This document shows positions 18,276-51,497 of a DNA stretch of 64,000 nt, piece after piece. The first letter of the stretch is position 1. Each line of letters begins with the position of its first letter. Origin of the DNA: Erysipelotrichaceae bacterium. GTDB lineage: Bacteria > Bacillota_I > Bacilli_A > Erysipelotrichales > Erysipelotrichaceae. Position numbers and translations under genes: made by a program. The notes under the pieces are model-generated. The model had not been told where the DNA came from, did not search any database, and worked only from the letters and a program-made list of their open reading frames with translations. Where the stretch lies: NCBI GenBank assembly GCA_017539105.1, contig JAFYHQ010000045.1:54320-118319 (forward strand). The letters are read 5' to 3'.

Positions 18276-18344
18276 TCTGAAAATATTTTCAATGCAAATG
18301 TAAATATAGACATATTTGTGTAAGAAACAGTCATGGAATCATTG

Positions 18345-18605
18345 TTTTTTGAGGAATTATATCTTAAAATAGAGAAAAGCTGTGAACAGAAGAGTAGCTT
18401 GATCGGATAGCGTAGAGAATCTTTGGCTGGTGAAAAAAGATGTGGATGATCAGGGGAAGATGGTCTGGGAGCTGCCGGTCCGATATGAAGGCCGGACGCA
18501 TGCCTGCGTTACAGGGCCAGGATATGTCTGTATCCGATGAGGTGCTTTTGCACGAAATAAGGTGGTAACACGATGATAAGTCGTCCTTAGGGGCGGCTTT
18601 TTTGT
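18345..18605 (+). promoter_or_regulatory. Candidate T-box leader (Met specifier?) ending in a terminator hairpin, upstream of metQ
   Basis: A ~440-nt 5' UTR contains an AGAGAA/AGUAG (AG-box-like) region, a possible AUG specifier context (AAAGAUGUGG), a GCGUUA F-box-like element and AAAUAAGGUGGUAACACG (10/12 to the T-box core GGUGGUACCGCG). A 7-bp hairpin GUCGUCC-UUAG-GGGCGGC followed by U6 sits at 18580-18604. Confidence 0.4.
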
Positions 18606-18721
18606 TTCAGGGGGTACATATGAATAAGAAAGTGAAAGAGGTGATCGGCTTGCGTTTCAGCGCAGGCGCGACAATGTGCAATATCATCGTCATCAAGTAA
18701 CAATAAGAAGGGAGAAAAACA

Positions 18722-19561
18722 ATGAAGAAAATCGTTACATTACTGTTTGTTTTACTGCTGCTCTGCGCTTGCGGAAACGGCGGTTCCGGATCAGGCGATA
18801 CGCCTGAGGAAGATAAGACGATCACGGTCGGAGTGAACCCGGTTCCTCATGCCGAAATTCTGGAGAAAGCGGTCAAGCCTGTGCTCGAAGCTCAAGGCTG
18901 GAAACTGGAAGTCGTGGTCTATCAGGACTATGTATTGCCAAATGAAAACCTGGTGGCAGGAGAACTGGATGCCAACTATTTCCAGACTCTGGGCTACATG
19001 AATGGACAGAATGAATCCCATGGCTGGACGCTGACTGCCATCAAGGGCGTGCATATCGAACCGATGGGACTTTATTCCGAGAAATACACGAGTGCTGCCG
19101 ATATCCCGGATGGCGCATATATTTCCGTTCCAAACGATGAAGACAACCGGACCAGAGCGTTGGAATTTCTGATTGCGAATGGTTTCCTGAACCCTGTGGA
19201 AGGAGAGCTGTCAGGCGATACCCTGAACGGCAATGCCGAGGCGAATCCGCATGGCTATCTGATCGTCGAACTGGAAGCTGCGCAATTGCCTCTTGCACTG
19301 GCCGATGTGGATGCATCCGTCATTAATGGAAACTATGCGTTAGGCGCAGGTCTTCCTGCGACCCATCCGGCACTGCTGGTAGAAAGCTTCGATGCGGAAA
19401 CCACGATCCGTCGCACCAACTTTATTGTCGTACTGGAAGGAAACGAGAAATCAGAAAAGATACAGGCGTTGGTCGATGCGATCACTTCGGATGCGGTAGC
19501 GAAGTATATCGAAGATACCTACAAAGGTGCGGTCATCACTTCTTTTGTCGATCCGCAGTAA
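18722..19561 (+). CDS. metQ: Methionine ABC transporter substrate-binding lipoprotein (NlpA/MetQ family)
   Basis: Lipoprotein signal LLLLCACGNG followed by the MetQ fold (TITVGVNPVPHAEILE...). Confidence 0.85.
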   Translation: MKKIVTLLFVLLLLCACGNGGSGSGDTPEEDKTITVGVNPVPHAEILEKAVKPVLEAQGWKLEVVVYQDYVLPNENLVAGELDANYFQTLGYMNGQNESHGWTLTAIKGVHIEPMGLYSEKYTSAADIPDGAYISVPNDEDNRTRALEFLIANGFLNPVEGELSGDTLNGNAEANPHGYLIVELEAAQLPLALADVDASVINGNYALGAGLPATHPALLVESFDAETTIRRTNFIVVLEGNEKSEKIQALVDAITSDAVAKYIEDTYKGAVITSFVDPQ

Positions 19562-19583
19562 TCGATAGAAACAGCTGATACTT

Positions 19584-19620
19584 AGAGATGTTCCGTCTTT
19601 TCTGAACATCTCTCTTTCTT
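19584..19620 (+). terminator. Hairpin + T-rich tract between metQ and metN (partial terminator or attenuator)
   Basis: AGAGATGTTC...GAACATCTCT is a 10-bp stem with a 10-nt loop, followed by CTTTCTT. Confidence 0.35.
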
Positions 19621-19631
19621 AGAGGTCAGAT

Positions 19632-20600
19632 ATGATAAAACTGGAAAACGTATGTAAAGATTTCGGAGATCTCAAGGTCCTTAAAGATATTACGCTTGAG
19701 ATCGCAGATCACGAGATCTATGGAATCATCGGACAGAGCGGCGCAGGGAAGTCGACGCTTTTGCGATGCATCAATGGTTTGGAAGAATATCAGTCCGGTC
19801 ACATCTATGTCGATGACGTGGAAGTGTCCGCAAAGGATACAAAGCAGCTGCATCTTCTGCAGAAGAAGATGGGCATGATCTTTCAGAATTTCAATCTGCT
19901 GGAACGTCTGGATGTCTATGACAACGTGGCGCTGCCGATGAAATTCTGGGGCATCAATACCCATACGCCCGAAGCGCAGGCAAAGATCAAGGAACTGATT
20001 TCGCTGGTCGGGCTGCAGGATAAGATGCATGTCCGTCCGAAGGAACTTTCCGGCGGGCAAAAGCAGAGAGTGGCGATAGCAAGGGCGCTGGTTCTTGATC
20101 CGCAGATCCTCTTATGCGATGAAGCGACCTCCGCCTTGGATCCGGCCATCACCAGAGAGATTCTGGCCCTGCTTCAAGAGATCAACAGGAATCTGGGCAT
20201 CACCATCATCGTCGTGACACACCAGATGGAAGTCGTGAAACAGATCTGTGAAAAAGTCGCTTTCATCAAAGAAGGAAGAGTCCTGGCCATAGGAAAACCG
20301 GAAGAACTGTTCATCCGCCCGACCAGGGACATCAAAGCCTTCCTGCATGAAGACAGCGAACTGCTGCCGGACAACGGATTGAATATCCAGCTCTTCTTTA
20401 CCGACGAAAGCTCGGACGAACCTGTCATCTCCCAGATGGCCAGAAAGCTGGATATCGATTTCTCTATTTCCTGGGCAAAACTTGAGGACTTCCGTTCCAA
20501 TGTGTACGGTTCGCTGGTAATCACGATAAATGAAGAAGATAAAGACAAAGTTCTGGATTATCTGGATTCGGTCAATGTCTTATGGGAGGTTTTGGACTGA
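19632..20600 (+). CDS. metN: Methionine ABC transporter ATP-binding protein with a C-terminal NIL/ACT-like regulatory domain
   Basis: Walker A GQSGAGKST, signature LSGGQKQR, Walker B LLCDEATSALD. Confidence 0.9.
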   Translation: MIKLENVCKDFGDLKVLKDITLEIADHEIYGIIGQSGAGKSTLLRCINGLEEYQSGHIYVDDVEVSAKDTKQLHLLQKKMGMIFQNFNLLERLDVYDNVALPMKFWGINTHTPEAQAKIKELISLVGLQDKMHVRPKELSGGQKQRVAIARALVLDPQILLCDEATSALDPAITREILALLQEINRNLGITIIVVTHQMEVVKQICEKVAFIKEGRVLAIGKPEELFIRPTRDIKAFLHEDSELLPDNGLNIQLFFTDESSDEPVISQMARKLDIDFSISWAKLEDFRSNVYGSLVITINEEDKDKVLDYLDSVNVLWEVLD

Positions 20601-20601
20601 T

Positions 20602-21237
20602 ATGATGGATATTATTCTGAATGCAAGCAGGCAAACTCTGTATATGGTCTTCTGGTCGACATTGTTTTCTGTCATCCTTGGCTTTATTCCTGCCATCATC
20701 CTGACATTGACGGCTCCGGATGGCCTGCGTCCCAACAAGATCGTGTATGAGACATTGTCTTTGCTTGTGAACATCTTCCGTTCGTTTCCTTTCATCATAT
20801 TGCTGGTGATCATCATTCCATTTACCAGATTGGTGGCTGGAAAAGCGATCGGTACCAGAGCGGCCATCGTTCCTTTGACCGTTTCGGCGATTCCTTACAT
20901 CGCCAGGATTTTCGAGACCAGTCTTCGCGAGACTGATCCCGGAGTCATCGAAGCGGCACGCTCATTCGGCGCTTCCGATCTGCAGATCCTGTTCCGTGTC
21001 TATATCAAAGAGTCGATCCCGAGAATGTTGAATGGAGTGATCCTGCTGATCATCTCGCTGGTTGGTTATTCAGCCATGGCAGGCACCGTAGGCGGAGGAG
21101 GCATCGGCGATCTGGCGATCCGTTACGGCTATCAGCAGTACAAGACGGAATACCTTCTGGTCTGTTCGATCATCCTGATCGTTTTCGTTCAGCTCGTACA
21201 GATGCTGGGAAACTATCTGTATAAGAGGCTATCCTAG
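20602..21237 (+). CDS. metI: Methionine ABC transporter permease
   Basis: The EAA-like loop (EAARSFGASDLQILFRVY) is present. The ATG at 20602 follows the metN stop; the listed ORF start at 20530 overlaps metN. Confidence 0.85.
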   Translation: MMDIILNASRQTLYMVFWSTLFSVILGFIPAIILTLTAPDGLRPNKIVYETLSLLVNIFRSFPFIILLVIIIPFTRLVAGKAIGTRAAIVPLTVSAIPYIARIFETSLRETDPGVIEAARSFGASDLQILFRVYIKESIPRMLNGVILLIISLVGYSAMAGTVGGGGIGDLAIRYGYQQYKTEYLLVCSIILIVFVQLVQMLGNYLYKRLS

Positions 21238-22032
21238 ATGAAGAAGGAAACTGTATCGATCCTATCGCAAAGAGGAACACTGATTCCTGCCGATATCGTT
21301 TCGGTTGAAGGCAAAGGAGGCCTGCTGATCCTGGCGCATGGCTTCAAGGCGGAACGTACGGAGGACGGAAGATTTACATTTGTAGCGGAACAGATGGCAG
21401 AGCACGGATTCCATTCAATACGGATGGATTTTCCTGCTTGCGGCGATTCAAAAGAACCTTTTATCGCTTACAGTCTGGATCACTGTCTGGAGGACATGGA
21501 GAGCTGCTTCCTGCATATGAAGGAACGCTATGAGATCGATGACCGTCTCTATCTTCTCGGCTACAGCATGGGCGGAAGACTGATTTCGCTGTTTCTCAGA
21601 AAACATCCGGAAATAAAGAAACTGGTGTTCTGGGCCGCCTGCAACCGTTCATTCGATCTGGATGATCTGTTTCTGGGACAGTCATTCAGGACACTCAAGG
21701 AACAATGCGACAGGGAAGGCTCCTGCGATTTCTATGATATCTATACACAGGAAACCGACCGGATGTCGGCAGAATTCGTCAGCAACATGCTGGAAGAGGA
21801 TGCTTTAGGTCCCTTGGAAAGTTTCAAAGGAGATGCCCTGATCCTTCAGGGAGATCATGATCAGACCATCGAAGTCGGAAACGCGCAATGGATCTATGAT
21901 CATCTGAAACAGGCTTCCGGCAGGAATCTGCATTACATCCATGGCGCCGATCATGGTTTCGGTCTATGGGATGGACGGACGCAAGACAGCGAGGAACTGA
22001 TCAAAACGACCGTATCCTTCCTGAAAGGATAA
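21238..22032 (+). CDS. Alpha/beta-hydrolase fold protein (dienelactone hydrolase/S9-like)
   Basis: HGFKAE...GYSMGG nucleophile elbow and GADHGF near the C-terminus. Its start abuts the metI stop. Confidence 0.65.
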   Translation: MKKETVSILSQRGTLIPADIVSVEGKGGLLILAHGFKAERTEDGRFTFVAEQMAEHGFHSIRMDFPACGDSKEPFIAYSLDHCLEDMESCFLHMKERYEIDDRLYLLGYSMGGRLISLFLRKHPEIKKLVFWAACNRSFDLDDLFLGQSFRTLKEQCDREGSCDFYDIYTQETDRMSAEFVSNMLEEDALGPLESFKGDALILQGDHDQTIEVGNAQWIYDHLKQASGRNLHYIHGADHGFGLWDGRTQDSEELIKTTVSFLKG

Positions 22033-22060
22033 ATGTATCCGTTTACATTGTTCCGGTATA

Positions 22061-22089
22061 TTGAAACCGCAGATCAATGATGTTAAGAT
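22061..22089 (+). promoter_or_regulatory. Promoter (-35 TTGAAA 22061-22066, 17-nt spacer, -10 TAAGAT 22084-22089) driving the riboswitch-led ECF S-component transcript
   Basis: Hexamers are read from the sequence. The predicted transcription start coincides with the riboswitch P1 5' strand. Confidence 0.4.
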
Positions 22090-22095
22090 TATTAA

Positions 22096-22212
22096 GTCCA
22101 TAAAGAGAGATGGAGAGACAAGCTCTGTGATATCTCAGCAACCTCACTGTAAGGTGCTAAAGCTTGAACGATGGGTGAAAAACATTTGCCCATCTTGTGA
22201 TGGGCTTTCTTT
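22096..22212 (+). promoter_or_regulatory. SAM-I-like (S-box) riboswitch lacking P4, with a terminator expression platform
   Basis: AGAGAGAUGGAGAGA matches the S-box P2/K-turn hallmark AGAGAGGUGGAGGGA. GCAACC...GGUGC forms the conserved P3 with a bulged A. The loop CAAGCU (22120-22125) is complementary to J3/4 AGCUUG (22161-22166), giving a pseudoknot. P1 is UCCAU (22097-22101) with AUGGG (22171-22175). The antiterminator GAUGGGU (22170-22176) with GCCCAUC (22188-22194) competes with the terminator GCCCAUC-UUGUG-GAUGGGC + UUUCUUU (22188-22212). Confidence 0.5.
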
Positions 22213-22235
22213 ATGAAAATAGGGGGAGAAATAGT

Positions 22236-22781
22236 ATGAAAAATGATTCTGTCAAGAAAGTTGTCGCTACCGGTATCGGTGCCGCATTGTTCTTTGTGCT
22301 GGCTCGTTTCGTAGCGGTTCCTAGCGGCATTCCGAACACGAATATCACGTTCCAGTATGCGATCCAGGCGGTATTTGCCGTACTGTACGGACCGGTCGTA
22401 GGATGTCTGTCAGGTTTCATCGGCCATGTGCTTTGTGACATGAGCTGGGGCGGCGTCTGGTGGAGCTGGGCGTTTGCAACAGGTGTCTATGGCCTGGTTG
22501 TCGGTTTCTTTGCAGACAAGATCAATGTCAAAGACGGCTACTTCGCTAAGAAAGAATTCTTCACGTTCGTTGTAGCAAACCTGGTGGCCAACTTGCTGGC
22601 ATGGCTGCTGATCGCTCCGATCGGCGATATCGTCATCTACAAAGAAGATGCCAAACTGGTCTTCACGCAGGGTCTGATTGCCGGCGCAGGCGACTTCCTG
22701 TTCGCAGTCGTGCTGGGCGGCTTGCTGCTCTACGGCTACTCCAAGACCGTTGCCAAGACCGGCTCGCTGGATAAAGAGTAG
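22236..22781 (+). CDS. ECF transporter S (substrate-specific) component, substrate unknown (SAM/methionine-related suggested by the leader)
   Basis: A ~180-aa hydrophobic protein with the S-component pattern (GIGAALFFVLARFVAVP..., ...LYGPVVGCLSGFIGHVL). RBS GGGGGAG precedes the ATG at 22236. An ECF A1A2-T module follows. Confidence 0.65.
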   Translation: MKNDSVKKVVATGIGAALFFVLARFVAVPSGIPNTNITFQYAIQAVFAVLYGPVVGCLSGFIGHVLCDMSWGGVWWSWAFATGVYGLVVGFFADKINVKDGYFAKKEFFTFVVANLVANLLAWLLIAPIGDIVIYKEDAKLVFTQGLIAGAGDFLFAVVLGGLLLYGYSKTVAKTGSLDKE

Positions 22782-22805
22782 ATCAAGATCCAGATTGCAA
22801 TGAAA

Positions 22806-22843
22806 AAGAAGTATCCATGATACTTCTTTTTTCTTTTTTTTGG
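22806..22843 (+). terminator. Rho-independent terminator after the S-component gene
   Basis: AAGAAGTAT-CCATGA-TACTTCTT followed by a run of T. Confidence 0.65.
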
Positions 22844-22976
22844 TTTTCAGGGAGATGAAATGAAAAAACTTTACAATATTATCTTAACAGGTGATTGTGA
22901 AACAATGGTGATAATTCCTGCATCATTTCCAGGAATCGCAGATATGCGTGATGAACATATTGTATAATGATGAAGT

Positions 22977-24689
22977 ATGAAACCGATTATTTCTTTTATG
23001 GATTTTTCTTTCCAGTACAATGCCCAGAAGCAGCCGACGCTGAAGCATATCGATCTGGACATCTATCCGGGAGAAAAGATCCTGATCTGCGGAGCCAGCG
23101 GTTCCGGCAAGAGCACGTTGGGCAATTGTATCAATGGCCTGATTCCTTTTTCTTATGAAGGAAAGATGGAAGGGGAACTGACGGTCGATGGAATCGTAAC
23201 GAAAGATTCTTCCATTTTTGAACTGTCGACCAGAGTGGGTACGGTCCTTCAGGATCCGGATGGACAGTTTGTCGGACTGACGGTGGCGGAAGATATCGCT
23301 TTCGCTTTGGAGAATGACTGCGTGGAGCAGGATGCGATGAAGAAGCAGATCATGGAAGCGGCAAAAAAGGTAGGCATCGAGGAACGCATGAACAATGCTC
23401 CGTATGATCTTTCCGGCGGTCAGAAACAGCGGGTTTCCATGGCAGGCGTCATCGTCGATGATGTCAAGATTTTATTATTCGATGAACCGTTGGCCAACCT
23501 GGATCCATATACCGGCAAGACCGCCATCGAACTGATCGATCTGATCAAGAAGCAGACCGATACCACGGTCCTGATCATCGAACACCGCATCGAGGATGTC
23601 CTGTGGGAAAAAGTCGATCGCATCATTTTGATGGATGACGGCCGGATCGTTTCCGATACGAAACCGGAAGAACTGCTGCGCAGCAGTCTTTTGTGGAAAT
23701 ATGGGATCAGGGAACCGTTGTATCTCACGCTGCTGAAATATGCGGGAATCGATGTGAATAAAGTCGAAGGGATCGACAACATCAAAGATCTACAATTAAA
23801 AGCAAACGACAAGAAAAAGATACGCGACTGGTATGAAGCCCAGAGCAAGCCTGAACGTGTGAACAATAATGATTACATCCTGGAAGTCGAACATGTGGAT
23901 TTTTCTTACGACAACAGCGAGCAGATCCTTTTCGATGTTTCTTTCAAAGTGAAACAGGGAGAGATGCTGGCGATCGTCGGAAAGAACGGCGCAGGGAAGT
24001 CCACCATGTGCAAGGTCATCTGCGGTTTCGAAAGAAACAAGACCGGGAAGATCCTTTTCAAAGGAGAAGACGTGACCCAATCCAGCATCCGTGCCAGAGC
24101 ATCCCATATCGGATACGTCATGCAGAACCCGAACCAGATGATCTCCCAGCCGATGATTTTCGATGAAGTCGCCATGGGCATCCGCAATCTGGGATTAAGT
24201 GAAGAAGAACTGCAGAAACGGGTCTATGACACACTTAAGATCTGCGGCTTGTATGAATTCCGCAACTGGCCGATTTCTGCCTTGAGTTTCGGACAGAAGA
24301 AACGAGTCACGATCGCATCCATCCTGGTCATGGGACCGGAAGTGGTGATGCTGGATGAACCGACCGCGGGACAGGATCTCAGACATTACACCGAAATCAT
24401 GGAATTCCTGAAAGAACTGAACGAAAAAGGCATCACGATTATCCTGATCACGCACGACATGCATCTGATGCTGGAATATACCGACCGTTCCATTGTCTTT
24501 ACCGATGGACGCATCGTTGCAGACAAGTCGGGTTCTGCCGTCCTTTGCGACAGGGAACTGATACAGAGAGCAGCTTTGAAGGAGACGTCGCTCTTCTATA
24601 TCGCGGAAATGACAGGCATCGATGATCCTGTGGATTTCGTCGACTGCTTCATCGCCTGCGACAGAAAGGAGCGGGACCGTGGCAACTAA
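22977..24689 (+). CDS. ECF transporter fused ATPase (EcfA1-EcfA2 tandem ABC domains)
   Basis: Two ABC domains (Walker A GASGSGKST and GKNGAGKST; signatures LSGGQKQR and LSFGQKKR); the length of 570 aa fits an A1A2 fusion. Confidence 0.9.
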   Translation: MKPIISFMDFSFQYNAQKQPTLKHIDLDIYPGEKILICGASGSGKSTLGNCINGLIPFSYEGKMEGELTVDGIVTKDSSIFELSTRVGTVLQDPDGQFVGLTVAEDIAFALENDCVEQDAMKKQIMEAAKKVGIEERMNNAPYDLSGGQKQRVSMAGVIVDDVKILLFDEPLANLDPYTGKTAIELIDLIKKQTDTTVLIIEHRIEDVLWEKVDRIILMDDGRIVSDTKPEELLRSSLLWKYGIREPLYLTLLKYAGIDVNKVEGIDNIKDLQLKANDKKKIRDWYEAQSKPERVNNNDYILEVEHVDFSYDNSEQILFDVSFKVKQGEMLAIVGKNGAGKSTMCKVICGFERNKTGKILFKGEDVTQSSIRARASHIGYVMQNPNQMISQPMIFDEVAMGIRNLGLSEEELQKRVYDTLKICGLYEFRNWPISALSFGQKKRVTIASILVMGPEVVMLDEPTAGQDLRHYTEIMEFLKELNEKGITIILITHDMHLMLEYTDRSIVFTDGRIVADKSGSAVLCDRELIQRAALKETSLFYIAEMTGIDDPVDFVDCFIACDRKERDRGN

Positions 24690-25512
24690 AGTACTGAACT
24701 ATATTCCGAAAGAAAGCTTCATCCATGGTCTTTCCGGAACCACCAAGCTGATCATTTTCCTGACCTTTTCCGTTTTATGCGGTCTTTCCTTCGATACCAG
24801 AGTTTTATTGTTCCTGCTGCTGCTTTCCTTTGTCGGTTTTTCTCTAAGCAATATCCGGCTTTCCGAAATCCGTCTGATGAGCACGTTCCTGATCATCTTC
24901 CTGGTAATGAATTTCATATTATTATTCCTTTTCAATCCGGAATACGGTCCTGAACTGTATGGTTCAAGAACGGTACTGTTCCATCTGTTCGGCAGATATG
25001 ATGTGACCATGGAACAGCTGTTCTATCAGTTCAATGTTTCCCTGAAATATGTCATCGGTTTCCCGATCGCGATCCTGTTCATTTCGACGACCAACCCGAG
25101 CGAATTCGCTTCCTCGCTGTCACAGATCGGCGTGCCGTACCGGATCAGCTATTCCGTTTCCCTGGCACTGCGATACATCCCGGATATCCAGCAGGATTAC
25201 CACGAGATCGCCCAGTCCCAGGAAGCAAGAGGCGTCGCTTTAGGCAAGGATGTCAAGTTCTTTGAACGTCTGAAGAATTCCGCCAAGATCCTGCTTCCGC
25301 TGGTACTGACCAGCCTCAACCGCATCGATGACATTTCCAATTCGATGCAGCTGAGAAGCTTCGGCAAATATAAGAAGAGAACCTGGTATACCAAGAAGAA
25401 AATGACGGCTGCGGATTACAGCGTCATTGCGTTCTGTGTCGTGCTGTTCGTAGTGGGCATGATCATCACCAATCAGGGCGGGAACAACCTTTTTAATCCT
25501 TTTGTGAGGTAG
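24679..25512 (+). CDS. ECF transporter transmembrane (T) component (EcfT/CbiQ family)
   Basis: Polytopic protein with the EcfT-like ARG region (SLALRYIPDIQ...AQSQEARG). A likely GTG start at 24679 is preceded by AAAGGAG and overlaps the ecfA stop; the longer ORF from the ATG at 24622 overlaps ecfA by 68 nt. Confidence 0.8.
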   Translation: MATKVLNYIPKESFIHGLSGTTKLIIFLTFSVLCGLSFDTRVLLFLLLLSFVGFSLSNIRLSEIRLMSTFLIIFLVMNFILLFLFNPEYGPELYGSRTVLFHLFGRYDVTMEQLFYQFNVSLKYVIGFPIAILFISTTNPSEFASSLSQIGVPYRISYSVSLALRYIPDIQQDYHEIAQSQEARGVALGKDVKFFERLKNSAKILLPLVLTSLNRIDDISNSMQLRSFGKYKKRTWYTKKKMTAADYSVIAFCVVLFVVGMIITNQGGNNLFNPFVR

Positions 25513-25514
25513 CT

Positions 25515-26357
25515 ATGAAAAAGATGCTTGTAGTTCAGACAGATTTTACTTATAAAGAAGGCGCGGTAGCAGCCATGTATGGCGTGATCAAGAGCGTGGA
25601 TCCAGACATCGAGATCATCACCGCGACCCATGAGATCCCCCAGTACGATACTTGGTCGGCATCCTATCGCCTGTACCAGTATATCGACTTCTGGCCGAAA
25701 GGAACGATCTTCATTTCCGTGGTCGATCCCGGCGTAGGAACGGACCGCAGAGCCTGTGTCGCAAAGACAAGGAACGGCTACTATATCGTGACTCCGGATA
25801 ACGGTTCTCTGACACATGCGGATCATTATTTCGGAATCGAGGAAGTTAGACAGATCGATGAAACGATCAACCGTCTGCATCGCGAAGACAACGGAGCGGT
25901 ATCGATCTTTCACGGGCGCGATCTTTTCGGTTACTGTGCAGCCAGACTGGCTTCGGGGATCATTTCCTATGAAGAAGTCGGACCTGTATACGATATCTCT
26001 GAAATCGTCCGTCACGACATCAAGGAAGCGGAAATTTTTGAAGACAGGATCGAAGGAATGTTCGAGATCAATGACCCGAATTTCGGCAATCTCTGGACGA
26101 ATATCCTCTTGAGCGATTTCCTGAAAAAACACAAGATGGGCGATCTGGTTCATACCGCGATCTATCGCGACGAAGAGAAAGTCTTCGATGACGTTCTTCC
26201 ATACTACGATTCCTTCGGCAAGGCTCCGAAGCACAGCGTGATGATCTACAACAATGAGATCAATAAGATGGGTCTGGCCGAAGTGATGGGCAATCTCTGC
26301 GAAGATTATGACTTAGGCTACGGCGAAGCATACAAGGTGGTGTTCTATGATGAATAA
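25515..26357 (+). CDS. SAM hydroxide adenosyltransferase family protein (DUF62; fluorinase/chlorinase-like fold), paralog 1
   Basis: N-terminal QTDFTYKEGAVAAMYGV, plus DNG, FHGRDLF and GNLWTNI motifs, are shared with SalL/FlA/DUF62 SAM-cleaving enzymes. Start is 3 nt after the ecfT stop. Confidence 0.75.
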   Translation: MKKMLVVQTDFTYKEGAVAAMYGVIKSVDPDIEIITATHEIPQYDTWSASYRLYQYIDFWPKGTIFISVVDPGVGTDRRACVAKTRNGYYIVTPDNGSLTHADHYFGIEEVRQIDETINRLHREDNGAVSIFHGRDLFGYCAARLASGIISYEEVGPVYDISEIVRHDIKEAEIFEDRIEGMFEINDPNFGNLWTNILLSDFLKKHKMGDLVHTAIYRDEEKVFDDVLPYYDSFGKAPKHSVMIYNNEINKMGLAEVMGNLCEDYDLGYGEAYKVVFYDE

Positions 26358-27186
26358 ACTTCTGGTATTTCAGACAGACTTCGGTCTGGACGATGGGGCG
26401 ATCAGCGCCATGGAAGGCGTCGCTTTCAGCGTCGACTTCGATCTGAATATCCGCCATCTGACGCACAATATCCCTCAGTACAACATTTTTGATGCGTCCT
26501 ATCGTTTGTATCAGGCCATCAATTACTGGCCTTCAGGGACCGTTTTTGTGTCTGTAGTAGACCCCGGCGTGGGATCGGATCGCAAGGCGGTCGTCGCCAG
26601 GACGAAGAACGACTACTATGTCGTCACCCCGGACAACGGAACCCTGACCCATATCGACCGTTTCCTGGGCATCGAAGAACTGCGGGAGATCGATGAGAAG
26701 ACAAACAGGCTGGCAGGTTCGGATCTGTCTTATACGTTCCATGGCAGAGATGTCTTCGCCTATACCGGAGCCAGACTCGCCTCCGGAAAGATCACATTCG
26801 AAGAAGTAGGACCAAAGATCGATCTGAAAGATCTGGTCCGTCAGGAACTCTATGGCTGCCATCCGATCGAAAATGGCATCATGGGGCAGATCGATATCCT
26901 GGATGTCCGTTTCGGTTCCTTGTGGACTTCGATCTCTTATAAAGATTTCATCAGCTGCGGCTTCCAGATCGGCGATGACATCCTGGTCGAGATCTTCCAC
27001 AACGATCAGAAAGTCTATTCCAACCGGATCAACTATGGAAAATCTTTTGCGGATGTCGCCATCAGCGAACCGCTGATCTATATGAATTCCGCCTATCACA
27101 TGGCGGTCGCGATCAACCAGGGATCTTTCTCCAAGGTCTATGGCATCGGCGTAGGCTCCGAATGGAAGATCACCATGACCAGATGA
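26347..27186 (+). CDS. SAM hydroxide adenosyltransferase family protein (DUF62), paralog 2
   Basis: Same motif set (QTDFGLDDGAISAMEGV, DNG, FHGRDVF, GSLWTSI). It overlaps paralog 1 by 11 nt (translational coupling). Confidence 0.75.
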   Translation: MMNKLLVFQTDFGLDDGAISAMEGVAFSVDFDLNIRHLTHNIPQYNIFDASYRLYQAINYWPSGTVFVSVVDPGVGSDRKAVVARTKNDYYVVTPDNGTLTHIDRFLGIEELREIDEKTNRLAGSDLSYTFHGRDVFAYTGARLASGKITFEEVGPKIDLKDLVRQELYGCHPIENGIMGQIDILDVRFGSLWTSISYKDFISCGFQIGDDILVEIFHNDQKVYSNRINYGKSFADVAISEPLIYMNSAYHMAVAINQGSFSKVYGIGVGSEWKITMTR

Positions 27187-27268: not shown

Positions 27269-27772
27269 ATGAATAAGAATAAAGATCTTGATATCTTTGA
27301 ACACGACGACTGGCTGAAAAAAGAAAGAGCCAGAGAAAGCAGGATCTCTGCCTGGGATTTTGATGATGCAAAGAAACTGCGTCAGGAACACGAAGATGAC
27401 TGCGACGCTGAAGATGTGGCGCAGCTGCATCGCATTGAACACAAACGCAGCAATACGATGAAAACCCCATCCTTATCCCGGATGAACGGAACGACTTCAT
27501 CAAACGATGTCGTCTGGTTCATCATCGACATCATCGCCATGTTTGTTCTGGTATTCCTGAATAACATGATATTCCGGCGCTGGGATTTCTATTGGCCGAT
27601 CATCATCCTGTTCCTGGGAATCAATCCCGGCATCTTTATCTGGCTGGCTGTCTTCAGACGCTTCCCGCCGGCAAGATTCAGTAAGCTCTTGCTGTGTATC
27701 GCGATCCTTATCGAAGTGATCGGATTCCTGTATTTTATGATTTATTATCATGGTTATTATTATTTTTTTTAG
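27269..27772 (+). CDS. Hypothetical membrane protein (acidic N-terminal cytoplasmic region, 3-4 C-terminal TM helices), upstream partner of an SPFH protein
   Basis: RBS AAGGAGGG precedes the ATG at 27269. The C-terminal half is hydrophobic. There is a 13-nt gap to the SPFH gene. Confidence 0.5.
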   Translation: MNKNKDLDIFEHDDWLKKERARESRISAWDFDDAKKLRQEHEDDCDAEDVAQLHRIEHKRSNTMKTPSLSRMNGTTSSNDVVWFIIDIIAMFVLVFLNNMIFRRWDFYWPIIILFLGINPGIFIWLAVFRRFPPARFSKLLLCIAILIEVIGFLYFMIYYHGYYYFF

Positions 27773-33697: not shown

Positions 33698-36600
33698 ATG
33701 CCTGTTTTGAAGTGCAAAATGTGTGGTGGCGACCTGAATGTCACCGATGACTCGGGTGTCGTTGTTTGCGAATACTGTGGAACAAAACAAACCATATCCC
33801 GCACAAATGATGATGTAATAAATAACCTATACAACAGAGCCAATAACCTTCGCTTGAAAAATGAATTTGATAAAGCTCAGAATGTTTATGAGAAGATCAT
33901 TGAACAAGACGCTGACGATGCGGAAGCTTATTGGTCTTTGGTGCTGTGCAAATACGGTATCGAATATGTAGAGGATCCTTTATCACATAAAAGAGTGCCT
34001 ACCGTAAACAGGACACAATACACATCGATCTTTGCGGATCACGATTATAAAGAAGCAATCAGCCGTGCCAATCCTGAGCAAAAGATCGTCTATGAACAGG
34101 AAGCTCAAGCTATTGATAAAATTCAGAAAGGTATCTTGGAAATATCCAAAAAGGAAGAACCTTTCGATATCTTTATTTGTTACAAAGAAACAGATGAAAA
34201 AGGCCACAGAACAATTGACTCCGTAATTGCGAACGATTTATATCATGAACTCGTTAACGAAGGATACAAAGTATTTTTCTCGAAAATCACATTGGAAGAT
34301 AAACTGGGCGAAGCATATGAACCATATATTTTTGCGGCACTCAATTCTGCCAAAGTCATGGTCGTGTTAGGAACGAAAGCAGATTATTTCAACGCAGTAT
34401 GGGTTAAAAATGAATGGTCAAGATATCTTCAGCTGATTGCTAAAGGCGAAAAGAAGACGCTCATTCCTGCATATAGAGATATGGATCCATATGATTTGCC
34501 GGAAGAGTTCGCTTATCTGCAGGCACTTGATATGTCCAAGATCGGTTTTGTGCAGGATCTGCTTAGAGGCATACGAAAACTGGTTGCTACCGAAGAGAAA
34601 AATGATACAAGAGAGATTATCGTTGAGAATCATAATGCTAACGCAGAACCTTTGCTGAAGCGTGCATTCATCTTTCTGGAAGACGGCAATTTCCAAAGTG
34701 CCGACGAATACTGTGACAAAGTTCTTGATATCGATCCAGAAAACGGAAAAGCCTATCTTGGAAAACTGATGGTTCAGCAAAAGATGAACACGGTTTCTGC
34801 TTTATTAGAAAATTATGAACATCTCTATGGTGATCCTGATTATGAAAGAACTAGTATTTCTGAGGTGATGGATGACTATCAGGATATCATTGCATCTAAA
34901 GTTGAAGAATATACGATTCCATCTTATCTGGAAGAAGATAAGTTAAAAGAATTATTCAGGAAATACAATACCAGCTATGATTCCAAAGTACCTGGGCTTG
35001 AGAAACAGAAAGAAATGATAATCAATCTGTTCAATGATGACCGCTCCATCTCAAAGATTCGACGTTATGGCAATCAAGATATTACATCGCTCTTTGATAA
35101 AGTAATCGAGTCTTATGATAAACGGATCGAAGAAGCAAAAGACAACGACAAAGAAACGATCGCTTTGATCAAACAGGGAGTCGTTGACTTCATGAACGAA
35201 ACTGAGGACTCAATTAAGAACCTATATGATGAGGAATCAAAAAAACGTGAAGAGGATTATGAAAAAGCGGTCGAAGATTATGAAAAGACAAATCTCATTG
35301 ACGTATTGAAGCAGAATATTGAAGTTTTCACTAAATGTGGTGATTATCGCGATAGTAAAGAGTATATCGAGAGATGCAACGTCAAGATCGCTGAGCTGAA
35401 AGAACAGCACAAGCGGGAAGAGGAAGCTGCAGCCAAGAAAAAACAGAAAACGATCTTGCTGACGGTTGCTGCAGTTATTCTGTCTATCATTGCTTTTGTG
35501 TTCTATCAGAACGTCATCCTGCCAAACAACAAGTATAATCAGGCTCATATGTATGTCGAGAACGGCGAATATGAACAAGCTGTCGCAATATATAAAGAAC
35601 TAGGTGAATACAGAGACTGTCAGGAGCTGTATAAAGATGCGTTCTATAAGCAAGGACAGGACGCTTTGCAAAAAGAAAACTATGAAACTGCAATCGCTGT
35701 TTTCACTGAATTAGGAACTTATGAAGCATCCGGTGAGAATCTGAAGCAAGCAATATATGGGTATGCGTTAAGTCTTGTGGAAAAACTGAATTATGACGAG
35801 GCGTTAGAAGAGTTCGATCTCATAAATGAATATAAAGATGTTGCTGATAAGATTCTTGATACAAAATACCATAAAGCGCAGTATCTATATGAACAGAAGA
35901 AATATGATGATGCAATAGCTTTGTTTACAGAGATAGTAGATTATGAGGATTCGAATAACTTTATTCTTAAGGTCAAATATGATAAAGCACTTTGGCTGCT
36001 TGAGAATAAAAACTATGATGAATCTATCGCGCTGTTTGATGAGATATCCGGATTTGAAGATGCTGCCAAACAAAAGAAAGAAGCAGAGAAAGAAAAAGAT
36101 AAAAACACGGTCAAGATCCCTTCTGTCTTGGATAAGAGTCAGGAGAAAGCCGAATCCTTACTGAAAGAGGCAGATCTGAAATATACAGTTAAAACCGATA
36201 CATCGCAGAATCAAGTGCCGGGAACTGTTATCAAAGTCAGCCCTGATCAGGGAACGCGTGTAATGAAAGGCTCCACTGTTACAATTACAGTTGCTAAAGG
36301 ATCATCGCAGTATTCTACTTATGCTGGCGATAATAATAACAACGTTTTATATCAGGTCAACGTATCTGGAGGTGTCAGCGATCTGAAGATCAGAAGCGCT
36401 CCGACAGCGATGGATAACAATATCCTGGATAAAGCTAAAACCGGTCAAATATTTAATGTGTATGAAACGCTTTCCAACGAAGGTTACACATGGCTGAGAA
36501 TCGGAAACAAGAGATGGATCGCCGATAATGGATCTTGGGTATATAGAGACACCAAGTGCGACAATAGAAATGGCAATTTCACTTTTGTTACAGCTACAAT

Positions 36601-36802
36601 CAGCGATCCGGACAACGACCATGTCAGTCTTTATGATAATCCTGTAGGAAATGAAAACATGAGAAACTGGGTTGGCAGCGTTTATAACGGAGAAACAGTC
36701 AAAGTATATTTCCGTTTCCATGATGGCACTTACTGGTGGTATAAAGTCGGCGTCGATCGTTGGATTAAGGATAGCGGTGAAGGCAGGGTCAAGATTAACT
36801 AG
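33698..36802 (+). CDS. Single-pass membrane TIR-domain protein, paralog A: cytoplasmic Zn-ribbon + helical module + TIR; TM; extracellular TPR-like repeats + PASTA + 2x SH3b
   Basis: Zn-ribbon CKMCGG...CEYCGT. TIR signature FDIFICYKETDEKG...SAKVMVVLGTKADYFNAVWVKNEWSRYL, with the alpha-C Glu of the SxW..E motif conserved. Single TM TILLTVAAVILSIIAFVFY at about aa 584. PASTA-like segment (TVKIPSVLDKSQEKAESLLKEADLKYTV...GSTVTITVAKG). Two SH3_3-like segments (...IRSAPTAMDNNILDKAKTGQIFNVYETLSNEGYTWLRIGNKRWIADNG...). Confidence 0.8.
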   Translation: MPVLKCKMCGGDLNVTDDSGVVVCEYCGTKQTISRTNDDVINNLYNRANNLRLKNEFDKAQNVYEKIIEQDADDAEAYWSLVLCKYGIEYVEDPLSHKRVPTVNRTQYTSIFADHDYKEAISRANPEQKIVYEQEAQAIDKIQKGILEISKKEEPFDIFICYKETDEKGHRTIDSVIANDLYHELVNEGYKVFFSKITLEDKLGEAYEPYIFAALNSAKVMVVLGTKADYFNAVWVKNEWSRYLQLIAKGEKKTLIPAYRDMDPYDLPEEFAYLQALDMSKIGFVQDLLRGIRKLVATEEKNDTREIIVENHNANAEPLLKRAFIFLEDGNFQSADEYCDKVLDIDPENGKAYLGKLMVQQKMNTVSALLENYEHLYGDPDYERTSISEVMDDYQDIIASKVEEYTIPSYLEEDKLKELFRKYNTSYDSKVPGLEKQKEMIINLFNDDRSISKIRRYGNQDITSLFDKVIESYDKRIEEAKDNDKETIALIKQGVVDFMNETEDSIKNLYDEESKKREEDYEKAVEDYEKTNLIDVLKQNIEVFTKCGDYRDSKEYIERCNVKIAELKEQHKREEEAAAKKKQKTILLTVAAVILSIIAFVFYQNVILPNNKYNQAHMYVENGEYEQAVAIYKELGEYRDCQELYKDAFYKQGQDALQKENYETAIAVFTELGTYEASGENLKQAIYGYALSLVEKLNYDEALEEFDLINEYKDVADKILDTKYHKAQYLYEQKKYDDAIALFTEIVDYEDSNNFILKVKYDKALWLLENKNYDESIALFDEISGFEDAAKQKKEAEKEKDKNTVKIPSVLDKSQEKAESLLKEADLKYTVKTDTSQNQVPGTVIKVSPDQGTRVMKGSTVTITVAKGSSQYSTYAGDNNNNVLYQVNVSGGVSDLKIRSAPTAMDNNILDKAKTGQIFNVYETLSNEGYTWLRIGNKRWIADNGSWVYRDTKCDNRNGNFTFVTATISDPDNDHVSLYDNPVGNENMRNWVGSVYNGETVKVYFRFHDGTYWWYKVGVDRWIKDSGEGRVKIN

Positions 36803-36838
36803 CGGCAGATTTGTTTATAAGCATATATTCAAGGGGGT

Positions 36839-38848
36839 ATGATGATGTTTTTGAAGTGCAAAATGTGTGGCGGAGACTTGAATATTGATAAAGGTGCTAC
36901 CACATGTAAATGTGAATATTGCGGTACGATTCAGACGATACCTGTATTGGACGACGAAAAGAAGAACAAACTTTTCGAAAGAGCCAACAGATTGCGTTTC
37001 AATAACGAATTCGATAAAGCTTATTCCGTCTATCATGACATCATAAACGACTTCCCGACAGAAGCAGAAGCCTACTGGGGGCTGCTTCTGTGCAAATACG
37101 GCATCGAATATGTTGAAGACCCTTATACTCACAAAAGGATCCCTACATGCCATAGATCTTCCTTTGAATCCATCTTTGATGATGATACTTTTGAAATGGT
37201 CATGGAGAATGCCGATGTCGTTGCCAGGGAGATCTACAGGAACGAAGCCAAGGCAATTGAAGAATTGCGGAAAAAGATCATTGAAGTCTCCAATAAGGAA
37301 GAACCATATGACATCTTTATCTGTTATAAAGAAGCCGATGAACAGAATAACAGGACGATAGATTCTGTCATAGCGCAGGATGTTTATAATGCTTTGACCG
37401 AAAAAGGCTACAGAGTGTTCTTCTCAAGGATCTCTCTTGAAGATAAACTGGGGCAGGAATATGAACCATACATTTTTGCAGCGCTGAACAGTGCGAAAGT
37501 CATGCTGGTATTCGGCACCAAGTATGATTATTTCAATGCTGTCTGGGTCAAGAATGAATGGTCAAGATATCTGCAGCTTATAGCTAAAGGCGAAAAGAAG
37601 ACACTCATACCATGTTACAGAGATATCGACGCCTATGACATGCCGAAAGAATTCCAGCATCTCCAGGCACAGGATATGGGCAAGGTAGGAGCGATACAGG
37701 ATCTGCTGCGAGGGATCGAAAAGGTCATGCCGAAGCAGGAAAAGACCGTTGTCAAGGAAACGGTTGCTGATCATGTTGAAACGGTTAAAAAAATAGAAAC
37801 CCCTGTAGAAGAAAAGCCGGTTGAGAAACAAAAGAAATCGTCCCTGGCCTTAATACTTTTCATCGTAGCCTGCATCGTAGTTGCTGCACTGGTACCGACA
37901 GTTATCATTCCGAAGTACAAATATAACAAAGCGATGGATTTGTTAGAATCCGGCAGTTATGAAGCCGCATATGCGATCCTGGAGGAAATAGGGAATGTTG
38001 AAGCGATTGCCTCAAACAAATATGATCGTGCGATCGCTTTGCTGGAATCCGGTGATTTTGAAAAAGCATACGCACTTCTGGAAGAGATCGGGAACGTTGA
38101 AGCAATTGCATCGAATATGTATGATCGTGCAGTCGCCTCGATCAATACCAGAGATTATGAAACAGCCTATATGCTGCTGAATGGACTGGATTATAAGGAC
38201 AGCGCAGACTTGCTGGATTCCATCCTTCCGGAATATCAGAGATTATTGATTTCCAGAGCGGAAGTTGGTTCTTATGTTTCGTTTGGTTCCTACGAACAAG
38301 ACAATAATACCGCAAACGGACAAGAAGAAATCGAATGGCTCGTGCTTTCAAAAGAAGGCGGTCTGATATGGCTGGTAAGCAGGTATGCTTTGGATTGCAA
38401 GCCATTCAATTACTCGCTTACTGATGTCACTTGGGAGACCTGCTCATTGCGCTCATGGCTGAATGATTCGTTCTATCATAACGCATTTGATTCGACGGAA
38501 CAGCAGATCATTGCCAGTAAATATGTAAGTGCCGACAGGAATCCTGACTATGCGGTTTCTTCCGGCAACAGCACGACAGATAAAGTGTTCCTGTTAAGCG
38601 TTTCAGAAGTAAACAGATATCTGGGATCTAATTCTGCAAGAACATGCTCCGGAACGGATTATGCATATGCACAAGGCGCATATAAGAGCAATGCAGGAAA
38701 TTGCTGGTGGTGGCTTCGTACGCATGGCGGAAGTTCCAGTTATGCCGTGAATGTCTGGGATTACGGCGCAATCGACAGCTATGGAGGCTGGGTCGACAAT
38801 AACAAATGTGGTATCCGTCCTGCGATATGTATCGAAATGGGATATTAG
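36839..38848 (+). CDS. Single-pass membrane TIR-domain protein, paralog B: same cytoplasmic Zn-ribbon + TIR module; TM; extracellular 33-aa tandem repeats + C-terminal CWWWLR...GIRPA domain (DUF6273-like)
   Basis: The N-terminal 300 aa are ~65% identical to paralog A (MCGGDLN..CEYCGT, AEAYWGLLLCKYGIEYVEDP, TIR PYDIFICYKEADEQ...NAVWVKNEWSRYLQL). TM is LALILFIVACIVVAALVPTVII. Two tandem 99-bp repeats lie at 37940-38137. The C-terminus carries a CWWWLR...NKCGIRPAICIE motif. Confidence 0.8.
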   Translation: MMMFLKCKMCGGDLNIDKGATTCKCEYCGTIQTIPVLDDEKKNKLFERANRLRFNNEFDKAYSVYHDIINDFPTEAEAYWGLLLCKYGIEYVEDPYTHKRIPTCHRSSFESIFDDDTFEMVMENADVVAREIYRNEAKAIEELRKKIIEVSNKEEPYDIFICYKEADEQNNRTIDSVIAQDVYNALTEKGYRVFFSRISLEDKLGQEYEPYIFAALNSAKVMLVFGTKYDYFNAVWVKNEWSRYLQLIAKGEKKTLIPCYRDIDAYDMPKEFQHLQAQDMGKVGAIQDLLRGIEKVMPKQEKTVVKETVADHVETVKKIETPVEEKPVEKQKKSSLALILFIVACIVVAALVPTVIIPKYKYNKAMDLLESGSYEAAYAILEEIGNVEAIASNKYDRAIALLESGDFEKAYALLEEIGNVEAIASNMYDRAVASINTRDYETAYMLLNGLDYKDSADLLDSILPEYQRLLISRAEVGSYVSFGSYEQDNNTANGQEEIEWLVLSKEGGLIWLVSRYALDCKPFNYSLTDVTWETCSLRSWLNDSFYHNAFDSTEQQIIASKYVSADRNPDYAVSSGNSTTDKVFLLSVSEVNRYLGSNSARTCSGTDYAYAQGAYKSNAGNCWWWLRTHGGSSSYAVNVWDYGAIDSYGGWVDNNKCGIRPAICIEMGY

Positions 38849-51410: not shown

Positions 51411-51497
51411 TTAATAGAAAACGGATGTGTTATTATATTTATGAAAAATATAGAATTATTAATTTAAAAGAGTATGAAACAAAGGGGTATCAGGATT

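Follow-up and report, generated by a model that had tools for sequence, protein, structure and literature searches.

A methionine-regulated ECF transporter module linked to DUF62 genes in Firmicutes: a possible route for import and cleavage of S-adenosylmethionine

Genes and RNA elements of the ECF-DUF62 locus

The DNA analyzed here, termed the window, is a 64,000-nucleotide (nt) stretch of an Erysipelotrichaceae bacterium genome (contig JAFYHQ010000045.1, positions 54,320 to 118,319). It carries the genes of a predicted energy-coupling factor (ECF) transporter of the Mts family together with two genes of the DUF62 family, whose characterized members hydrolyze S-adenosylmethionine (SAM). The association of these two families recurs in three classes of Firmicutes, and the transporter may import SAM or a close analogue that the DUF62 enzymes cleave.

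All genes of the locus are on the + strand. Their order is: a methionine (Met) T-box leader, metQNI, a hydrolase gene, a SAM-I riboswitch with its terminator, the ECF S component, a second terminator, the fused ATPase gene ecfA1A2, the T component gene ecfT, and the two DUF62 genes, D1 and D2 (Table 1). In the gene orders given below, S denotes the S component, AA the fused ATPase (ecfAA its gene), T the T component and D a DUF62 gene; L numbers denote related loci. The window arrangement is kept in at least ten related Erysipelotrichaceae loci and is thus not due to chance. The source bacterium is an inhabitant of the rumen or gut; the best genome match to the locus is the metagenome-assembled genome (MAG) RGIG2833 from goat omasum, with 92%–97% amino acid (aa) identity.

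The initial annotation, made without database searches, had described a SAM-riboswitch-led S component behind metQNI and a hydrolase gene, and downstream of these a fused ecfA1A2, ecfT and two tandem DUF62 genes. The Rfam and Pfam matches agree with the first description at the positions given in Table 1, and each of the downstream genes is present with profile matches of its own. The 11-nt overlap that had been read between the two DUF62 genes is also correct, but the gap between the ecfT stop and the D1 start is 2 nt and not 3 nt.

Table 1. Positions of the genes and RNA elements of the locus in the window, with supporting evidence
Feature	Position	Strand	Evidence
T-box leader, AUG (Met) specifier	18373..18591	+	Rfam RF00230, 111 bits; specifier GAA-G-AUG-G read off the cmscan alignment
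metQ	18722-19561	+	Pfam NlpA
metN	19632-20600	+	Pfam ABC_tran+NIL
metI (open reading frame)	20530-21237	+	Pfam BPD_transp_1
Alpha/beta hydrolase	21238-22032	+	Pfam Abhydrolase
SAM-I riboswitch aptamer	22095..22177	+	Rfam RF00162, 55.6 bits (gathering score 44.4)
Riboswitch expression platform, predicted terminator hairpin GCCCATC-TTGT-GATGGGC + T-run	22188..22212	+	Terminator scan (hairpin 22188-22205)
ECF S component, UPF0397 / MtsA (MtsT) family, 181 aa	22236..22781	+	PF07155, 156 bits; NF010182, 212 bits
Predicted intrinsic terminator after S, 14-bp hairpin (22802-22832) + T-run	22802..22842	+	Terminator scan; hairpin kept in five-locus alignment
Non-coding block (AAATGAAAAAA..TTTAC..TTAACAG..GATTGTGAA..GTGATAAT..GGAATCG)	22856..22940	+	Invariant columns, five-locus alignment
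Predicted promoter -10 box TTGTATAAT	22960..22968	+	8 nt 5′ of the ecfAA start codon, Shine-Dalgarno absent
Fused (duplicated) ECF ATPase EcfA1A2 / MtsB-type, 570 aa	22977..24689	+	TIGR04520, 415 bits; TIGR04521, 364 bits; DUF3744
ECF T component (CbiQ family), 277 aa	24679..25512	+	PF02361, 93 bits
DUF62-1 (D1), divergent type, 280 aa	25515..26357	+	PF01887, 154 bits; PF20257, 37 bits
DUF62-2 (D2), canonical type, 279 aa	26347..27186	+	PF01887, 166 bits; PF20257, 66 bits

The S gene starts at an ATG preceded by the ribosome-binding site (RBS) GGGGGAG. Its product exceeds the NF010182 cut-off of 99 bits and also matches PF12822. The AlphaFold model of the protein (predicted local distance difference test score, pLDDT, of 91) displays six helices, and a Foldseek search of the PDB gave ECF S components for all of its top 25 matches, with template modeling (TM) scores of 0.5–0.77. 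The top match is Thermotoga maritima RibU (19% identity, E = 1e-3), but RibU, PanT, FolT, BioY and ThiT are matched about equally well (12%–22% identity). A sequence-level search of the PDB with the S component gave no match at E ≤ 1. The protein has a conserved cluster of Trp residues (W75, W76 and W78).

The S family (PF07155/UPF0397) is named MtsA in SEED, where it is described as a “methionine-regulated ECF transporter”. It takes in S. sanguinis SSA_0592 and S. gordonii SGO_0469, both of which are listed as “UPF0397” in UniProt (exact-sequence look-ups and homologue search). Because the S family already carries these names, the transporter module is assigned to the Mts family and is not an orphan. 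Three features of the family are present in the window: an S match at the NF010182 level, methionine/SAM sensors, and a fused, duplicated ATPase. A 2009 article by Rodionov et al. in J Bacteriol 191:42 reportedly predicted MtsTUV from its Met regulation, with a “methionine precursor” as cargo. We know of no member of the Mts family whose substrate has been characterized experimentally. In TCDB, Mts is family 3.A.1.29 (“Met-P”), which PMC3654945 lists.

The SAM-I aptamer before S is a short form, i.e. helix P4 is absent and P3 is minimal. The 5′ arm of the terminator that follows (CCCATC) could pair with the 3′ strand of P1 (GATGGG, 22171-76) and so form an antiterminator, as read from the sequence. 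Riboswitch and terminator together have the predicted layout of a classic SAM-OFF attenuator.

The fused ATPase has two ABC_tran domains with Walker A and B motifs in each half. Its first half has the ABC signature motif LSGGQ, whereas its second half (23886-24689) has LSFGQ; one of the two ATP sites may therefore be degenerate. Fused ATPases of related loci are 557–575 aa long. The T component carries the ARG coupling motif at residue 183. Its gene most likely starts at the GTG at 24679 and not at the upstream ATG at 24622: the GTG has an RBS (AAAGGAG, 24666-72), it overlaps ecfA by 11 nt, and homologues start at the same place. With an S fold, two ECF ATPase domains and a CbiQ-type T component, the module is a group-I (dedicated) ECF transporter.

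The spacer between S and ecfAA is 195 nt long. An alignment of the spacers of five Erysipelotrichaceae loci shows three kept elements: the terminator hairpin, a block at about 22856-22940, and the sequence ATTGTATAAT, which contains TATAAT. The block is invariant in the five loci though its flanks diverge, and it matches no Rfam family; it may be an operator or an upstream promoter element. The -10 box (TATAAT; TAAAAT in L013) lies 6–8 nt before the ATPase start in the window and in L001, L008-L011, L013, L015 and L017. A convincing -35 box was not found in the spacer; the start-proximal -10 box is the only promoter element that is conserved. Because the -10 box abuts the start codon and no Shine-Dalgarno sequence is present, ecfAA-T-D1-D2 probably has a dedicated promoter and a leaderless mRNA, the start of which is predicted.

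A separate terminator and promoter for these four genes had been part of the initial annotation; the 14-bp hairpin and the putative -10 box are in accordance with it. Translational coupling had been proposed for the whole set. It holds for ecfAA-T-D1-D2, where genes overlap or are 2 nt apart, but not for S, which forms a separate transcription unit. Most of the 80 related loci described below have a hairpin with a T-run in the spacer that separates S from the ATPase gene. The order S, hairpin, AA-T is thus a habit of the family, and this layout probably sets the levels of S and of the module independently.

A 35-codon open reading frame within the spacer (22860-22967) has a good RBS and was considered as a leader peptide. 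Its reading frame is not kept in L010, where it is broken, and it is thus regarded as non-coding. An Rfam E-value scan of positions 18300-23000 for further riboswitches gave noise only, besides the T-box and the SAM element.

Linkage of DUF62 with transporter genes in other genomes

Two samples were used. On the transporter side, genomes (one per species) were scanned with an alignment of S components, followed by tblastn mapping, which gave 80 genome loci. On the DUF62 side, 80 metagenome loci were collected with family-wide DUF62 motifs (29%–62% identity to D2), hidden Markov model (HMM) searches were made for S, AA and T genes, and a neighbor-joining tree of the DUF62 sequences was built.

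On the transporter side, the trio S-AA-T is kept in about 70 of the 80 loci, and a DUF62 gene adjoins transporter genes in 30. These 30 are made up of 20 loci with the order DUF62-S-AA-T, eight in which S is followed by a separate AA-T-D1-D2 unit, and two with DUF62-S at a contig end. S-AA-T makes up 40 of the remaining loci, S alone six, and a cut S-A four. Carriers of an adjoining DUF62 gene are Erysipelotrichaceae, Christensenellales and Oscillospiraceae, as well as others. Clustering of all flanking open reading frames in this sample showed that no neighbor besides DUF62 recurs beyond local synteny.

On the DUF62 side, an S, AA or T gene adjoins DUF62 in 20 of the 80 loci. The DUF62 genes concerned belong to the D2-type clade (16 of its 21 loci) or to the D1-type and related clades. 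Among the approximately 55 loci of the other DUF62 clades, none has an adjoining ECF gene. For one DUF62 clade the transporter is the sole neighbor that recurs, and no recurrent neighbor was found for the DUF62 loci without ECF genes.

Further gene orders were found: D-S without AA-T nearby, D-AA-T-S (L100), AA-T-D (L135), T-D (L134), and AA-T-x-D...S (L130). Streptococci display D-S-x-AA-T (S. pneumoniae), D-S followed by three genes and AA-T (S. suis), and D-S (S. sanguinis and the S. gordonii/cristatus group). Aeribacillus pallidus, Clostridium tertium and Allofournierella have D-S-AA-T. Thus the linkage is seen in at least six gene orders or rearrangements and in three classes of Firmicutes. 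Its most persistent unit is a DUF62 gene directly beside S (gaps of 12–90 nt), even where AA-T is elsewhere, e.g. in the streptococcal D-S pairs.

The window locus is unexceptional: its transporter is of a known, predicted family, and the enzymes to which it is joined are of a known family as well. It represents one of several arrangement variants, in which S alone has a riboswitch, AA-T-D1-D2 forms a unit of its own that is probably leaderless, and DUF62 is present as two paralogs. In the literature searched, which did not cover Rodionov 2009/2004, Kornfuehrer 2020 and Eustaquio 2008, DUF62, “hydroxide adenosyltransferase” or COG1912 was never paired with ECF terms. The MtsTUV/MtsABC systems share with the window the S family, a dedicated module of a fused ATPase and a CbiQ-type T component, and Met T-box/S-box control. 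In the window, unlike in these systems, S comes with a SAM riboswitch and a terminator of its own, and AA-T is transcribed separately with two DUF62 genes; a link to DUF62 was not seen for them in the literature searched.

Rfam scanning for riboswitches and T-boxes covered 32 loci. A SAM-I riboswitch precedes S in nine loci (the window, L001, L008, L010, L011, L013, L014, L015 and L017). A custom covariance model built from the Rfam-verified SAM aptamers and run over 1.4 Mb of loci detected a SAM riboswitch nowhere beyond these nine. The riboswitch is absent from L009, L012 and L016. There, S lies about 90–117 nt behind the hydrolase gene of a Met-T-box metQNI operon and is probably transcribed from that operon.

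Met T-boxes are found on the DUF62 side as well. A T-box with an AUG specifier directly precedes DUF62-S-AA-T in Aeribacillus (L095, 7649-8870), and another directly precedes DUF62 in L099 (3440-4632). In L090 (1-960), the 3′ end of a T-box, with an unreadable specifier as the contig is cut, precedes DUF62, which is followed by queG and odhA; ECF genes are absent, and DUF62 alone appears to be the regulated gene. Rfam scanning of 22 Clostridial, Bacilli and metagenome loci gave nothing but one Met T-box. In loci that have a sensor, either partner, S or DUF62, is thus under control of a Met T-box or a SAM riboswitch.

The initial annotation had suggested that the ECF module and DUF62 cooperate in a methionine/SAM pathway. 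The comparative linkage and the Met/SAM regulation strongly support cooperation in such a pathway; the identity of the cargo is a matter of inference and is considered below.

In the window, metQNI encodes a methionine ABC importer, and the T-box at its head controls this adjoining operon and its hydrolase gene; it is context and lies outside the ECF operon. The order metQ-metN-metI-hydrolase is found directly 5′ of S in ten Erysipelotrichaceae loci. In these ten, the alpha/beta hydrolase is a kept fourth gene of the Met-T-box metQNI operon, and it might process an imported methionine derivative. Lactococcus lactis (L169, 1-4953) has four tandem metQ genes (NlpA lipoprotein), metN and metI, followed by S-AA-T.

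In four loci from Solobacterium-like MAGs (L012, L014, L016 and L018), S stands alone, with AA-T and DUF62 absent within 10 kb; the lone S must therefore use a module encoded elsewhere. In L014 it has a SAM riboswitch. Two PF00756 esterase genes and a gene for an ATP-grasp protein follow the lone S. A PfkB kinase gene located directly 5′ of (D-)S-AA-T in several loci (L004/L021, L027, L030 and L031) was considered as an adenosine kinase, with which a path from SAM via adenosine to AMP would be complete; NCBIfam assigns the proteins to 2-keto-3-deoxygluconate (KDG)-type sugar kinases, and the candidate was rejected.

The two DUF62 paralogs

Both open reading frames had been named as DUF62 genes in the initial annotation, and the Pfam search identifies them as such: PF01887 and PF20257 match both, in all cases above the Pfam gathering cut-offs. 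D1 and D2 are 47% identical to each other and 30%–34% identical to members of solved structure. The best PDB match of D2 is 2zbu (1e-38).

An alignment to 1wu8/2wr8 places the catalytic triad of PH0463 (D68/R75/H127) at D71/R78/H133 in D1 and at D72/R79/H132 in D2. Of the 86 DUF62 sequences compared, all except L102 keep this Asp-Arg-His triad. The characterized proteins PH0463, MJ1651, Salinispora DUF62 and SaciSAMH share the PF01887 and PF20257 domains and the triad with the window pair. Unlike these, the pair belongs to a Firmicute clade that is tied genomically to an ECF importer and to methionine sensors, and the D1-type pocket is changed; the characterized enzymes have been viewed as repair enzymes for endogenous SAM and not as partners of an importer.

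The fluorinase FlA and the chlorinase SalL have the same fold, make the same SN2 attack on C5′ of SAM, and have alignable SAM-binding residues. However, the window proteins have Asp (not Tyr/Thr), His (not Tyr) and Gly (not Ser) at the positions in question. This is the triad of hydrolases in place of a halide pocket, and halogenase activity is thus not expected.

In the tree, D2 groups with the single DUF62 that adjoins S in Clostridia and Bacilli. D1 falls in a separate ECF-linked clade, which includes L089 and L096 (both S-AA-T-D1-D2) and L130; in L130 and L123 the D1-type gene is the sole DUF62 present. The number of clade-fixed substitutions is 30 in D1 and six in D2.

The changes in the D1 clade include (D2 numbering) D236 to K/Y, S248 to E, and N257 to V/C/S, at positions that are kept from Pyrococcus to Thermotoga. 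D1 itself has K at 236, E at 248 and V at 257, and D2 keeps the canonical S248 and N257. Presumably S248 (the Ser of the motif N-S) corresponds to S269 and N257 (the Asn of A-[IV]-N) to N278 of the fluorinase; the motif positions in the fluorinase sequence used agree with published residue numbers. R270 of the fluorinase, the neighbor of S269, forms a salt bridge with the methionine carboxylate (PMC12080486). Since the triad is kept while D236, S248 and N257 are replaced, D1 looks like a catalytically competent enzyme in which the pocket for the methionine moiety is changed.

The tandem arrangement had been taken as a duplication hinting at sub-functionalization. Sub-functionalization is in agreement with the present comparison, in which D1 belongs to an older ECF-linked clade with a changed pocket. 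A recent tandem event is not: the D1/D2 duplication is judged to be ancient and not a local event of recent date.

NCBIfam names the DUF62 enzymes (R)-S-adenosyl-L-methionine hydrolases, a name that is also used in recent papers (bioRxiv 10.1101/2025.08.29.672840). Characterized members hydrolyze SAM, with a preference for (R,S)-SAM, to adenosine and methionine (bioRxiv 10.1101/2025.08.29.672840; PMC12120602). The initial annotation had named no physiological role for the family; a role, (R,S)-SAM hydrolase, has by now been proposed, although PMC12120602 disputes it. D1 and D2 are classed here as members of the DUF62 family and not as demonstrated iso-functional orthologues of the (R)-SAM hydrolases.

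The S. suis locus explains an entry in a published table (SSUSC84_0347, PMC9423846), in which the first gene is a mis-named DUF62; P0222 and L168 (4132-4980) were noted in the same context. PDB 7ccg (“RNA polymerase subunit delta”) was itself considered as a streptococcal DUF62 and rejected: it has Tyr in place of both Asp and His and is chlorinase-like.

Substrate of the transporter and role of DUF62

Import of SAM followed by its cleavage is the simplest model that accounts for the linkage as well as for the SAM riboswitch and Met T-boxes. According to this model, SAM or a close analogue would enter through Mts and would be split by DUF62 into adenosine and methionine, the inactive (R,S)-SAM above all. 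A probability of about 0.45 is given to this reading. It starts from gene content, RNA elements, family memberships, kept linkage and methionine/SAM regulation, all of which are directly established. What it adds by inference is which substrate is carried, in what order the steps occur, that the mRNA is leaderless, and any division of labor between D1 and D2.

The proposed steps are as follows. When cellular SAM is low, the SAM-I riboswitch would stop terminating and the S component would be made. S would dock on the AA-T module, which would share with the two hydrolases a dedicated promoter and a translationally coupled, probably leaderless mRNA. From the rumen or gut surroundings, the complex would import SAM or an adenosyl-sulfonium compound very close to it. 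Water activated at the Asp-Arg-His triad of DUF62 would attack C5′, and adenosine and L-methionine would be released. Cleavage would trap the substrate, supply methionine and a purine nucleoside, and clear the inactive (R,S)-epimer that accumulates in extracellular SAM.

Riboswitch-controlled ECF S components carry the ligand of the riboswitch or a direct precursor of it; examples are thiamine pyrophosphate (TPP)/ThiT, flavin mononucleotide (FMN)/RibU, preQ1/QrtT, and tetrahydrofolate (THF)/FolT. DUF62 chemistry requires a sulfonium leaving group. The general relationship of S components and riboswitches, and the precedent of QueK-QrtT-QueL for import and cleavage, are described in PMC3766115 and PMC11477304. 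QueK-QrtT-QueL, which is associated with a preQ1 riboswitch (PMC11477304), shares with the window locus an ECF S component beside enzymes that cleave an imported nucleoside-type compound and a riboswitch for the end product. However, it has another S family, other enzymes and another ligand, and QueK-QrtT-QueL has experimental support, whereas the window locus is known from its sequence.

Several points weigh against SAM import and cleavage. A DUF62 gene is lacking within about 7–10 kb in the 40 S-AA-T loci (Blautia, Faecalibacterium, Gemmiger and others), and likewise in Lactococcus; DUF62 is thus not obligatory beside the transporter. In the Clostridial D-S-AA-T operons scanned, no known Met/SAM RNA sensor was found. 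The S gene of the window does not share a transcription unit with the hydrolase genes. D1 and D2 stay far below the NCBIfam equivalog cut-offs of the characterized (R)-SAM hydrolases (NF058624, 106 bits for D1 and 139 bits for D2 against 350; NF053629, 96 and 117 bits against 470). To our knowledge no Mts S component has a biochemically shown substrate, and the labels of the family say only “methionine-regulated” or “methionine precursor”. Cleavage of an imported cofactor looks wasteful, unless it is selective for the epimer or methionine is the goal. In addition, it has been doubted for at least one DUF62 enzyme that SAM hydrolysis is what it does physiologically (PMC12120602).

Some of these points are shared by an explanation in which the two partners supply methionine in parallel. 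Mts would import a methionine precursor or derivative without an adenosyl group (homocysteine, S-methylmethionine, methionine sulfoxide, a keto-acid or a peptide-like form), DUF62 would recycle endogenous (R,S)-SAM, and their clustering would reflect a common methionine-starvation regulon. The labels in SEED and, reportedly, in Rodionov 2009, which speak just of methionine regulation or a methionine precursor, agree with this, as do the half of S-AA-T loci without DUF62, the T-box 3′ end that L090 has upstream of a DUF62 gene without ECF neighbors, and the presence of metQNI, another methionine supplier, beside the transporter in two lineages. Nevertheless this explanation appears somewhat unlikely. 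The linkage has come through at least six rearrangements across three classes, as is seen more typically for successive steps than for co-regulated genes, the unit that persists best is DUF62 directly beside S even with AA-T elsewhere, and no other gene of the methionine regulon (metK, metE, metC etc.) recurs beside either partner.

A different adenosyl cargo (decarboxylated SAM, a SAM analogue or breakdown product, or a mixture), with D1 and D2 specialized by cargo or epimer and with import and cleavage following the same logic, is improbable to a greater degree. It would account for the properties of the D1-type enzymes: these form an ECF-linked clade of their own with an untouched triad, they have Glu for the Ser aligned with fluorinase S269, V/C/S for the Asn at N278 and K/Y for D236, and they occur as the lone DUF62 in L130 and L123. 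However, the fluorinase sequence used for this residue mapping was checked only via published residue numbers, thioethers such as methylthioadenosine (MTA) and S-adenosylhomocysteine (SAH) are poor leaving groups here, and control by a SAM riboswitch and Met T-boxes fits SAM or methionine best.

Two further explanations have very little probability. Pfam and NCBIfam name the S family “ECF-type riboflavin transporter S component”, and the top Foldseek match is a RibU; were S to carry riboflavin or another unrelated vitamin, DUF62 would be an unlinked passenger, but none of the 32 loci scanned with Rfam has an FMN riboswitch before S, where a SAM riboswitch or Met T-box is found instead, the RibU match is no better than those to FolT, ThiT, BioY and PanT and has no sequence-level counterpart in the PDB, and the DUF62 linkage recurs far beyond chance, so that the name has no support in the present data. 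The other, equally remote, is that DUF62 is mainly non-enzymatic, i.e. a cytoplasmic gating or regulatory subunit that senses SAM and modulates the transporter, as the translational coupling of D1 and D2 to ecfT and the altered ligand pocket of D1 could suggest; the triad is however invariant in all but one of the sequences compared, D1 included, many loci have DUF62 beside S with AA-T elsewhere, and the characterized homologues are enzymes.

If the transporter does import SAM, its place among SAM importers would be new. Bacterial SAM importers are known from Rickettsia (RP076) and Chlamydia (CTL843); these are of the DMT/EamA family and serve obligate intracellular bacteria. They share the proposed SAM uptake with Mts, but the protein family and the energy source are unrelated. 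We know of no ECF-type SAM importer shown so far. It is tentatively suggested, as an extension that is on the doubtful side, that Mts is the first of this type and the first SAM importer known in free-living or commensal Firmicutes, S. pneumoniae and S. suis among them, that SAM is taken up in the manner of a vitamin, and that the Firmicute DUF62 clade processes the imported SAM. D2-type enzymes might then clear the inactive (R,S)-epimer or cleave it to adenosine and methionine. D1-type enzymes, with Glu in the carboxylate pocket, might act on another cargo or epimer, for instance decarboxylated SAM, or might assemble with D2 into mixed trimers.

The linkage merges two questions that are more than 15 years old: the cargo of Mts, a system predicted in 2009, and the purpose of DUF62, debated since 2008, with a role in damage repair still questioned by a paper of 2025 (PMC12120602). 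The Mts-DUF62 system is present in the genetically tractable pathogens S. pneumoniae and S. suis and in abundant commensals of the rumen and gut. If SAM import is correct, SAM would join the “vitamins” that are cross-fed in microbial communities, and two widespread database names, “ECF-type riboflavin transporter” for S and “RNA polymerase subunit delta”, would be corrected.

Downstream of D2 there is no terminator. The next gene starts at the ATG at 27269, has a -10-like box and a ribosome-binding site of its own, and is not kept in relatives. Two other regions of the window were also noted. Positions 33698-38848 contain adjacent open reading frames with TIR domains, one of 1034 aa (TPR + TIR + PASTA) and one of 669 aa (TIR + DUF6273), in a stretch of low GC content (0.38–0.42); the pair may be an anti-phage defense island. 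Positions 51474-59435, another low-GC stretch, encode a predicted surface protein of 2653 aa with 13 DUF285 repeats and Big_2, LRR and SLH domains.

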